Positions 8,763 to 18,808 of a stretch of DNA of 27,689 nucleotides are shown in pieces. The translations under genes were made by a program, and so were the position numbers. The notes below the pieces were generated by a model, which worked only from the letters and a program-made list of their open reading frames with translations, was not told where the DNA came from and made no database searches. Location: positions 609 through 28,297 of the forward strand of contig JAWABM010000009.1 in NCBI GenBank assembly GCA_038999215.1. Direction: 5' to 3'. Positions within the stretch are counted from its first letter, which is position 1; each line of letters starts with the position of its first letter. The DNA comes from Candidatus Aenigmatarchaeota archaeon. GTDB lineage: Archaea; Aenigmatarchaeota; Aenigmatarchaeia; Aenigmatarchaeales; JACQIB01.

Positions 8763-9251
8763 ATGAAGGCTGATATAAGGGAAGGCAAGGTCATAGCGGA
8801 CGGTACGGAGCTGTACAACAGCGGATGGTACGGGGATCTGGAAGGAAAGGGGGTGATGCTGAACCTCGTAGAGGCGATGTTCCTTCTGGAAAAGGGGAAA
8901 ATCGAGATAGCAAAGCATGATGCCGAATCCTTCTTCAGGTTCTGCACGAAGTTCGACCAGCATTTCACGGCCAGATACTCCGTGTACAAGGACCTGAGGG
9001 AAAGGGGCCTGCCTGTCAGGCTCGGCTACAAGGGCAGCGACTTCCGCGTCTATGAGCGCGGGGCGAGCGCGGGCAAGCCGGGCAAGGTGAAGTGGATAGT
9101 CTTTGCCGAGGCCGAGGATTATCAGTGCGAGATGGACAAGCTCGGTAAGGCGATAGGTCTAGCGAAGAACATAAGGGCGATAGCGTTGTGGGCTGTCGTT
9201 GACAACGATCTGGACATAACGTATTATGTGATAAATTCAATTTCGCCGTGA
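8763..9251 (+). CDS. endA: tRNA-splicing endonuclease, probable structural (beta) subunit
   Basis: 'LNLVEAMFL', 'VYKDLRERG', 'DFRVYERG'. Lacks the catalytic His and Lys but retains the acidic L10 loop 'VVDNDLDITYY'. Confidence 0.88.
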   Translation: MKADIREGKVIADGTELYNSGWYGDLEGKGVMLNLVEAMFLLEKGKIEIAKHDAESFFRFCTKFDQHFTARYSVYKDLRERGLPVRLGYKGSDFRVYERGASAGKPGKVKWIVFAEAEDYQCEMDKLGKAIGLAKNIRAIALWAVVDNDLDITYYVINSISP

Positions 9252-9787
9252 TGCTCATGATGAAGGCTCAGCTCGCTAAGGACAGGGTGATTGTCTGGGA
9301 CAAGAAAGGCGCAGAAGCGCTCTTCGATGAAGGCGCGTTCGGCAAGCTCGTGGCGGAAAGGCTGGAGCTGTCGCTAGTAGAAGCGGCATATCTTTCGGAA
9401 AAGGAAAGGTTGGAAATAATCGACGACGGCAAGGCAATCGGCACGGAAGCCTTCATAAAATATTGCAATATGGTCGACAGCAGGTTCGATTGCAGATACG
9501 CCGTTTACAAGGACCTGCGCGAAAGGGATCTTCCGGCGCGCACAGGCTTCAAGTTCGGCTGCGATTTCAGGGTGTATGCGAAAGGCGTGAAGCCTCTGAA
9601 GCGCGGGCCAAAGTCCGCGAAGGAGCACACCAAGTGGATAGTGTTCGCTGTACCGGAAGGATACGTTTTCAGCTTCCCCGAACTTTCAAGAGCAGTCCGC
9701 CTGGCACACAACATAAGGGCGAACATGCTCTGGGCGGTGGTCGGGAAGCAGGTCAGATATTACCAGGTCGAGTTTTTTAAACCTTAG
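9251..9787 (+). CDS. endA: tRNA-splicing endonuclease, probable catalytic (alpha) subunit
   Basis: 'DRVIVWD', 'LSLVEAAYL', 'VYKDLRER', 'TGFKFGCDFRVY' (Tyr), 'KEH' (His), 'RAVRLAHNIR', C-terminal 'KP'. The start could be 9248, 9251, 9257 or 9260. Confidence 0.93.
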   Translation: MLMMKAQLAKDRVIVWDKKGAEALFDEGAFGKLVAERLELSLVEAAYLSEKERLEIIDDGKAIGTEAFIKYCNMVDSRFDCRYAVYKDLRERDLPARTGFKFGCDFRVYAKGVKPLKRGPKSAKEHTKWIVFAVPEGYVFSFPELSRAVRLAHNIRANMLWAVVGKQVRYYQVEFFKP

Positions 9788-9829: not shown

Positions 9830-10984
9830 ATGTTCATGCAGGTCGAAGACATAATGTCAAAAGACGTTCTTAGCCTGAAAGGAAATGACACGATAAGCGA
9901 TTTCATTTCGCTGATGGAAAGCGAGCATATACACGAGGTTCCGATAATAGAGGACGGCAAGCTTGTAGGAATGGTGAGGTTCAACACGCTCATGAGCAAG
10001 GGCGTAACCGACCCTGCAAACCAGAAACTCGGCAGCATAATGGACTTTCCACCGCCAGCGCTCAACCCAAAGATGAGCGTGGAGGAGGCCGCAAACATAA
10101 TCTCAAAGACAGGGCTCAGGGGCCTGCCGGTCGTAGACAACAAGAAAGTCGTCGGCATCGTATCGATATTCGACATACTTGAAGTGGCAGCAACATCTAA
10201 GGATTTCAGGCAGACTGCGGCAGGCGACATAATGTCAGAGGCGATCATAATTTCCGAAAACTCTGACATAGGAGCGGCCAGGGTGATGATGAGGGAGAAG
10301 GGAATATCCAGGATACCTGTCGTCGACAGCAATGGCAAGCTCATCGGCATAGTGACAGCCTTCGACATGCTCAGAGCGATAAGGCAGCCGAAGGAAAAGA
10401 TGACGTGGTACAACATGGCTGCGGAAATGGAGGCATTCACAGCCATGCCTGTCGTCAACATCATGAACAAGAATCCTCCAACCGTTAGCAAAAAAGATAG
10501 CCTGAACGAGGTCGTCGGGGACATGGTAAGATACAAGACGTCCGGAATAACGGTCGTTGAGGATAACGTGCCTGTGGGCGTCGTGACAGTCAAGGATCTT
10601 CTGGAAGTGTATGTCGCCGGTGGCCTACAGAAGGGAGTATATTACCATGCGATAGGGCTTGAGGACGAGGACGAATTCATAGTGAGCACTGTGCACAGGA
10701 TGATAGGCGACTGCATCAGCAAGATATCAAGCATATATCCCGTGCAATTCATGTTCGTGCACTTCAAAAAATACAAGTACAAAGGTTTGAAAGCGAAATG
10801 GTCGGTCAGAGCCAGGGTCATGACCGACAAAGGTATGTTCATATCCAAGTCGTGGGGATGGGACCCTAGGGACGCGGCCAACGATGCGCTCAGCAGGCTT
10901 GACAGGGAAATAGTCGACAGAAAGAAGGTCACAAAAGACAAGATCAAGCGCAATGCAAGGATGCTGAAGGACAGGATGAAGTGA
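9830..10984 (+). CDS. 4xCBS-domain protein with a C-terminal HPF/RaiA-like domain (putative ribosome hibernation factor)
   Basis: Four CBS repeats (VPIIEDGKLVGMV, LPVVDNKKVVGIVS, IPVVDSNGKLIGIVT, VVEDNVPVGVVT) plus a basic ~115-aa tail 'VHFKKY...WSVRARVMTDKGMFISKSWGWDPRDAANDALSRLDREI' with the HPF-like strand/helix pattern. GGAGGT SD upstream. Confidence 0.8.
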   Translation: MFMQVEDIMSKDVLSLKGNDTISDFISLMESEHIHEVPIIEDGKLVGMVRFNTLMSKGVTDPANQKLGSIMDFPPPALNPKMSVEEAANIISKTGLRGLPVVDNKKVVGIVSIFDILEVAATSKDFRQTAAGDIMSEAIIISENSDIGAARVMMREKGISRIPVVDSNGKLIGIVTAFDMLRAIRQPKEKMTWYNMAAEMEAFTAMPVVNIMNKNPPTVSKKDSLNEVVGDMVRYKTSGITVVEDNVPVGVVTVKDLLEVYVAGGLQKGVYYHAIGLEDEDEFIVSTVHRMIGDCISKISSIYPVQFMFVHFKKYKYKGLKAKWSVRARVMTDKGMFISKSWGWDPRDAANDALSRLDREIVDRKKVTKDKIKRNARMLKDRMK

Positions 10985-18692: not shown

Positions 18693-18808
18693 TGGTGCCC
18701 CGCACGGGATTCGAACCCGCGACTTCCAGCTTTCATCGCCCACAAAGGGCTCAACCCTTCTATGAACATAGAAGGCTGGCACTCTAATCCAAGCTGAGTT
18801 AGCGGGGC
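18693..18808 (-). tRNA. tRNA-Arg (TCT) with a 37-nt intron at 37/38 (intron 18732-18768), CCA encoded
   Basis: Reverse complement: GCCCCGC TA ACTC AGCTTGGATTA GAGT G CCAGC CT TCT A [TGTTCATAGAAGGGTTGAGCCCTTTGTGGGCGATGAA] A GCTGG AAGTC GCGGG TTCGAAT CCCGT GCGGGGC A CCA. Confidence 0.93.

Follow-up and report, generated by a model that had tools for sequence, protein, structure and literature searches.

Loss of the triad lysine from tRNA-splicing endonucleases of Aenigmatarchaeota and Nanohaloarchaeota, and a loop L3 lysine as its candidate replacement

The catalytic subunit of the tRNA-splicing endonuclease (EndA) of an Aenigmatarchaeota archaeon carries alanine in place of the lysine of the Tyr-His-Lys triad. 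Judged from sequence, what is new here is an EndA that lacks a residue held essential, across much of two phyla and with one specific replacement candidate; the fold, the pathway, loop L3 and the two-subunit design are all previously known. Hirata 2019 (PMC6379350) describes the triad as conserved across the four archaeal EndA types and eukaryotic TSEN alike, and PMC10485636, PMC10539383 and PMC3241643 state likewise. Full-text searches of the running text of openly available papers found no report of a natural EndA without this lysine, and the word 'lysine' is absent from one Kaneta 2018 supplementary text file. The genes and residues concerned are listed below; positions count along the window, i.e. 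the whole 27,689-nucleotide stretch of DNA that was analysed.

8763..9251, + strand: endA beta (structural) subunit, 162 aa, without the catalytic His and with the acidic L10 loop
9201..9215, + strand: acidic L10 loop of the beta subunit, absent in alpha
9251..9787, + strand: endA alpha (catalytic) subunit, 178 aa, protein P0001, with Pfam PF01974 and PF02778
9575..9577, + strand: Tyr109 (TAT), triad tyrosine, invariant in the alignment
9578..9625, + strand: Tyr-His loop of 16 residues, carrying the L3 (Nanoarchaea/ARMAN-2) insertion (accessible parts of PMC5829648 and PMC3488258)
9611..9613, + strand: Lys121 at His-5 (five residues ahead of the histidine), candidate to replace the lost amine; corresponds to N. 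equitans Arg97, counted from His102
9626..9628, + strand: His126 (CAC), triad histidine, invariant in the alignment
9629..9631, + strand: Thr127 (His+1); in ARMAN-2 the backbone NH of its counterpart contacts the scissile phosphate, together with the lysine (PMC12397907)
9698..9700, + strand: Arg150, the conserved bulge-binding (cation-pi) arginine, invariant
9710..9712, + strand: Asn154, three residues before the lysine site (site-3); most canonical enzymes have Ser or Gly here
9719..9721, + strand: Ala157 (GCG), at the triad-lysine site after N-I-R, placed by alignment to solved EndA chains

Direct reading of the codons agrees with the earlier note on this DNA, which had placed the tyrosine and the histidine 16 residues apart and an alanine codon after NIR, with alanine again in the paralogue (GCG in the beta subunit, at 9177-9179). 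Aligned with phmmer, Ala157 faces the lysine of five solved chains, 1A79 (M. jannaschii), 3IEY (N. equitans), 5X89, 4FZ2 and 3P1Z, and because these helix alignments are gap-free, the register is fixed. The note had allowed that realignment might restore a lysine to the canonical site; against these chains the site holds Ala157. The triad lysine is K133 in N. equitans, K156 in M. jannaschii and K287 in A. fulgidus (PMC2761253), and Arg150 precedes its site by seven residues, as R275 precedes K282 in ARMAN-2. No lysine adjoins Ala157, the neighbours being Arg156 and Asn158. Among the best 120 homologues the site is Ala in 119 and Ser in one, in line with the note's view that a sequencing error is unlikely; the gap-free alignments and the 120 homologues together exclude sequencing error or misalignment as its cause.

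The PF02778 and PF01974 domains and the EndA fold, together with Tyr109, His126 and Arg150, place the protein in the archaeal EndA/VSEN family, and because Ala157 stands where a triad lysine belongs at the end of the RNA-binding helix, we class it as an EndA variant. Its top PDB sequence match is 3IEY_A (E 8.7e-32), its AlphaFold model has a pLDDT of 91.3 and a pTM of 0.86, and translation could also begin at an in-frame GTG at 9248. With the M. jannaschii alpha4 enzyme (1A79) it shares the fold (Foldseek TM 0.84), the tyrosine, the histidine and the cation-pi arginine; that enzyme differs in its 9-residue loop, its retained Lys156 and its homotetrameric build. The beta gene, whose stop codon overlaps the alpha start, has a loop of 10 residues. 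It has lost the histidine and keeps L10, which serves in tetramer assembly (PMC2761253), while alpha has lost L10; because these losses are complementary, we infer that the two subunits form an (alpha-beta)2 endonuclease. Genes for 178 and 162 aa do not fit the three-unit epsilon2 type of ~400 aa. A model of the alpha-beta complex scored 0.67 against 0.01 for the best control and passed the mark, which 116 of 157 solved pairs and 2 of 215 mismatched pairs reach; contacts agreed to at least 96% between runs, partner pLDDT was at least 88, and the modelled interface (alpha 169-178 with beta 153-162) is in favour of pairing through the C-terminal strands. Similar complexes have been solved, and the score may reflect no more than likeness to them. 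The N. equitans (alpha-beta)2 EndA (NEQ205 and NEQ261; 3IEY; PMC2761253) likewise has two subunits, a 15-residue L3 loop and an alpha subunit without L10, but it keeps Lys133, with Arg at His-5 and Ser at His+1, where the present enzyme has Ala, Lys and Thr. The subunit split would have arisen separately in the two lineages, since beta here nests among the alpha genes of its own order (NEQ261 itself lies outside the tree). The gene after endA (window 9830-10984, + strand) encodes four CBS domains, followed by ~110 C-terminal residues that match no Pfam family.

The loss of the lysine extends well beyond this genome. All 97 alpha genes read from phylum genomes have Ala, Ser or Thr at the site; these genomes comprise the 30 best-scoring of 201 searched, 60 hand-picked across families among strong matches, and 7 others, and their phylum, Aenigmatarchaeota, is judged by homologue labels (five of the six close homologues with a phylum label are Aenigmarchaeota, one Micrarchaeota). 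A distant Lys-less query gave 120 listed proteins, every one Lys-less, and all 15 that bear a taxon label are Nanohaloarchaeota. Lysine is kept in all 120 proteins listed for an N. equitans-like query, in each of the 17 genomes from the phylum to which an Undinarchaeales record led, and in 30 of 30 Hadarchaeota EndA genes read; the loops of the last have 9 residues, and they therefore contribute no L3 cases.

A quick maximum-likelihood tree, built from 140 sampled rows, groups the Lys-less L3 proteins in a single clade (78 rows, SH-aLRT 99), and in it the beta subunits nest with alpha genes of the same order (support 98). Many relatives have a single EndA gene that retains L10. We infer a single loss of the helix-end lysine, in the common ancestor that Aenigmatarchaeota share with Nanohaloarchaeota, and the Lys-less clade fits the Aenigmatarchaeota-Caliditerrarchaeota-Nanohaloarchaeota grouping given in 10.1101/2025.08.05.668663. 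As read from the alignments and the tree, the loss is real and ancient. The earlier note had counted alanine in both copies against a sequencing error. Beta nests among the alpha genes of the order: by its place in the tree, the alanine of both copies is an inheritance predating a local duplication and, because beta arose by duplication inside the order, not a second event. One Lys-less protein with a shortened loop and no L3 (P0189) is placed inside the Lys-less clade. Two further proteins of unassigned origin, P0236 and P0238, have Thr at the triad-lysine site, a 9-residue loop without L3, and Lys one place earlier (site-1); because they form a separate branch of the quick tree, apart from the main Lys-less clade, they possibly represent a second loss or a one-residue shift.

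A claim that the whole phylum is Lys-less was ruled out, as epsilon2 enzymes with lysine occur alone or alongside in several families. Weak matches only to our query were found in 34 of 201 phylum genomes, and the 10 of these that were checked all hold ARMAN-2-like epsilon2 proteins of ~400 aa with lysine. Among multi-hit genomes from other families, 5 of 5 checked carry both a Lys-less alpha and a ~400-aa epsilon2 enzyme with the canonical lysine. Because the two EndA types coexist in one genome, these cases suggest a division of labour or an ongoing replacement. In its accessible part, Kaneta 2018 (PMC5829648) records epsilon2 for Micrarchaeota only and states that the alpha'2 type is missing from DPANN. 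One further locus (L111:895-2133, - strand; protein P0121) encodes an alpha'2-like fusion of a degenerate L10-bearing unit with a Lys-less catalytic unit.

L149-L164, L222-L226: epsilon2 EndA genes in the phylum, ~400 aa, with the canonical lysine

The insertion between tyrosine and histidine, which the earlier note had taken to be new, is a known one: the same loop has 15 residues in 3IEY and 14 in 4FZ2, beside 16 here and 9 in 1A79. In the accessible text it was described with basic residues K93, K94, K96 and R97 (Hirata 2012, PMC3488258), and was named L3 and found across DPANN, including alpha4 enzymes, by Kaneta 2018 (PMC5829648), whose tree includes Nanohaloarchaea SG9. The present loop resembles it in place and basic make-up and is of similar length. 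L3 is reported to adjoin the triad (PMC3488258), and the available parts of both papers treat it as a possible substrate-binding loop of full-triad enzymes, whereas here it is paired with loss of the triad lysine; no mention of a coupling of L3 to that loss was found in these parts. Nor did the alignment of homologues that the note had proposed show insertion and loss going together: L3 also occurs with the canonical lysine in N. equitans-like and Undinarchaeota enzymes, and it is therefore not tied to lysine loss. That the two are always paired is refuted by 21 Lys-keeping long loops and by 3 short-loop Lys-less proteins. Essential lysines close to the scissile phosphate and borne by loops confined to one lineage have precedents, in ASL Lys161 of the ARMAN-2 epsilon2 EndA (4FZ2, 9W2K; PMC12397907, accessible part) and CSL Lys44 of crenarchaeal enzymes. 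However, ASL and CSL are N-terminal insertions (L2 and L1) added to an intact triad, and the present alpha subunit has no insertion there relative to 1A79 and a gap relative to 3P1Z. In four families (f16, f19, f25 and f28) the Lys-less alpha bears a 5-residue, Pro- and Glu-rich insertion at this site, which starts like the crenarchaeal CSL and has no conserved lysine inside.

L090, L093, L095-L098, L101, L103, L105-L107, L109, L110, L112-L115: genes with the 5-residue L1/L2 insertion

Three positions near the active site changed with the lysine. The comparison started from 745 profile hits; 46 that could not be parsed (beta subunits, fragments, odd motifs) were dropped. The remainder comprised 579 distinct catalytic cores; 295 lack the lysine and 284 keep it, and of these 292 and 21, respectively, have a loop of 15-16 residues. 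His-5 is Lys in 289 of the 292 Lys-less L3 cores (the remaining three have Asp, Glu and Arg), and in the 21 Lys-keeping long loops it is Arg in 17, Lys in two Undinarchaeota enzymes (L146 and L148) and another residue in two unrelated loops. His+1 is Thr in all 292 Lys-less cores and in none of the 284 Lys-keeping ones, which have only Ala or Ser, while site-3 is Asn in 273/292 against 4/284. When the aligned columns were scanned (292 against 18 cores, three atypical Lys-keeping loops having been dropped), Lys121 was the sole basic residue that separates the groups, and no new invariant acidic residue near the site appeared in the Lys-less group. In Nanohaloarchaeota-like proteins nearby loop lysines are often Glu or Asp, with His-5 still Lys in 117 of the 120 listed; one subgroup has lost the Gly-Pro before it. 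These counts are not independent trials, because the covariation is essentially one evolutionary event in one clade.

The genome appears to depend on this enzyme. Only two PF01974 and two PF02778 matches occur genome-wide, and no second EndA was found by Pfam searches, tblastn with 8 epsilon2 proteins or six-frame profile searches of the assembly, which is 88% complete; a hidden second EndA was set aside on the same searches. An epsilon2 gene was found in none of the 42 genomes of the order, where the query met only short alpha/beta proteins (37 genomes with a match, best 60 bits), so that the other canonical endA which the earlier note had allowed for did not turn up in the genome or its order. 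Five relatives assembled in 1 to 7 contigs have one EndA each, which is Lys-less in the three read (G139, G131 and G026), and the one-contig G139 has at least 6 intron-bearing tRNA genes in the stretches read. In the source genome we found 47 tRNA genes, 25 intronless and 22 intron-bearing; every gene found for the Asn, Cys, Lys, Met, Trp and Tyr tRNAs has an intron, and the genome encodes RtcB. A single RNA run gave three short, distant matches only, which speak neither for nor against expression and splicing in vivo. Because it is the sole EndA found, 22 of 47 tRNA genes have introns and RtcB is present, the Lys-less enzyme is probably active.

The pre-tRNA-Arg that the earlier note had seen in the window is there, with its intron at 37/38. 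Twenty distinct anticodon-loop introns were placed in the 37/38 register: 9 give a strict bulge-helix-bulge (BHB), 5 a central-helix mismatch, and 6 lack the inner helix; the Ile-UAU and Lys-CUU introns fit the register poorly. As folded here, relaxed splicing substrates exist in the source genome. The note had suggested that the rewired active site may permit relaxed substrates, an idea that found no support: N. equitans EndA, with L3 and its lysine intact, already cleaves relaxed motifs (PMC2761253), so such cleavage is not creditable to Lys-to-Ala, and ARMAN-2 L3 Lys-to-Ala mutants stayed active. Several features of the tRNA genes are worth recording beside this. Many introns begin with the reverse complement of their own anticodon loop, which folds with it into a hairpin of 7-10 bp incompatible with the BHB central helix. 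Against intron shuffles the hairpin had p<0.05 in 7 of the 20 introns (about 1 expected), with values of ~0.08 for Arg-UCU and Lys-CUU, and by eye the same hairpin recurs with altered letters in Arg-UCU of G001 and G004, Lys-UUU of G002, and Gln-UUG and Met of G026. The hairpin may be a folding switch or a codon mimic; a literature search found nothing on it. The initiator tRNA-Met gene has the genome's only intron found outside the anticodon loop, two identical intron-bearing tRNA-Asn genes lie 3.9 kb apart, and for both tRNA-Thr(CGU) and tRNA-His one gene has an intron and a second lacks it. In G026, which has a single Lys-less alpha4-type gene, introns are ~12-15 nt and by eye allow only bulge-helix-loop motifs.

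Window 18693..18808, - strand: pre-tRNA-Arg(UCU), 37-nt intron at 37/38 (18768-18732), BHB with one central-helix mismatch; hairpin-bearing
C3:36372-36486, C3:6484-6612, C3:4372-4476, C13:5673-5787, C14:13418-13539, C14:2807-2927, C21:9138-9254: other hairpin-bearing introns
L208, L209, L210, G026:C1:18490-18556, G026:C6:52906-52985: hairpin introns of relatives
C10:8802-8919, - strand: initiator tRNA-Met with a ~40-nt D-loop intron
C1:6996-7112 and C1:10909-11025: duplicate tRNA-Asn genes
C8:27745-27818 and C16:8050-8167; C5:11651-11763 and C17:5787-5861: with/without-intron tRNA pairs
G026:C7:53108-53188, G026:C7:55142-55223, G026:C1:7742-7815: short-intron tRNAs of G026

We propose, and give an even chance to, an active EndA in which Lys121 supplies the lost amine while Thr127 and Asn154 refit the pocket. 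Tyr109 and His126 would do the usual RNase-A-like chemistry, as their conservation suggests. The triad lysine, which neutralises the scissile phosphate, would have been lost once in the Aenigmatarchaeota-Nanohaloarchaeota ancestor, and a basic residue already present on L3 (Arg in most L3 enzymes with the lysine) would have given way to the fixed Lys121, five residues before the histidine, which would now provide an amine to the scissile phosphate; Thr127 and Asn154 may reshape the pocket vacated by the long side chain. L3 would have come first and the lysine loss second, and because the loop came first it would have permitted the loss rather than arisen with it. The earlier note's suggestion that a Lys or Arg of the loop replaces the lost lysine is thus kept in part: Lys121 is near-invariant where Lys-keeping enzymes mostly have Arg, but the insertion is neither new nor linked to the loss. 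The two Undinarchaeota enzymes that have both lysines would be the expected intermediate; equally, they show that a His-5 lysine is not peculiar to the Lys-less state. Against Lys121 stand the three Lys-less cores in 292 without the His-5 lysine, and P0189, P0236 and P0238, which lack L3 altogether. The ARMAN-2 L3 mutants K241A and K244A also retain activity, which the triad mutant K282A and the ASL mutant K161A lose (PMC3488258), though the L3 mutations are at other positions and K282 is still there in both. As PMC12397907 describes the RNA complex of ARMAN-2 EndA, one non-bridging oxygen of the scissile phosphate is bound by both K282 and the S252 NH (His+1), ASL K161 grips the adjacent ribose, and L3 residues 243-248 crowd the ASL/CSL site; because of this crowding, Lys121 may have a positioning role like that of ASL-K161 and not replace K282.

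The same structure bears on the strongest competing account, unlikely but deserving of weight, in which the enzyme is active with no one-for-one substitute for the amine: neutral donors, namely the NH or OH of Thr127 and Asn154, together with water or a divalent ion, would stabilise the transition state, and Lys121 would only grip the bulge, in the manner of ASL Lys161. Thr127 is the tightest of the coupled changes. A Lys-to-Glu mutant of the A. fulgidus enzyme (Calvin et al. 2008) is said to have regained activity with divalent metals, which we count for this account, although the Lys-less group has no new invariant acidic residue near the site. The Thr127 equivalent in ARMAN-2 touches the same phosphate oxygen as the lysine, and L3 adjoins the ASL site, which favours a positioning role (PMC12397907, accessible part). 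Yet ARMAN-2 K282A is dead despite having both ASL Lys161 and L3 (PMC3488258, accessible part), and the account leaves the Arg-to-Lys switch at His-5 unexplained. Less probable still is that the charge comes from another basic residue: Arg156 at site-1, Lys128 at His+2, Lys32 at the L1/L2 position, or a residue of the partner subunit. Site-1 is Arg in 289/292 Lys-less cores against Arg in 8 and Lys in 10 of the 18 L3 Lys-keeping ones, His+2 is Lys in 272/292, and the two separate Lys-to-Thr proteins without L3 have their lysine at site-1. The positions of Arg156 and Lys128, however, are already basic in Lys-keeping enzymes, including ARMAN-2 with its dead K282A mutant; Lys32 is Glu or Asp in 31/292, and single-gene alpha4 relatives have no beta subunit to contribute a residue.

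We think it very improbable that the Lys-less protein has little or no catalytic activity and plays an auxiliary part, and that another nuclease cuts the introns, such as an epsilon2 enzyme missing from the 88% complete assembly. The pairing of Lys-less alpha with canonical epsilon2 in the five multi-hit genomes, and the epsilon2 proteins of the weak-match genomes, speak for such an arrangement elsewhere in the phylum; against it are the absence of epsilon2 from all 42 genomes of the order and the single EndA of each of the five relatives of few contigs. Moreover, the tyrosine, histidine and cation-pi arginine of alpha are invariant, whereas beta lost its histidine.

If Lys121 does supply the amine, a catalytic residue would have migrated, and this clade would have a triad of Tyr, His and a lysine from L3, which would make a second natural design of the active site; we hold this fuller reading to fall a little short of an even chance. 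Were it true, L3 would gain its first defined function, and the Aenigmatarchaeota-Nanohaloarchaeota clade a three-residue shared character. Across much of two DPANN phyla, tRNA splicing appears to proceed in the absence of the triad lysine, and the Lys-less enzymes are natural reagents for two questions: what the lysine contributes, and what role is played by L3, for which one has so far been proposed.
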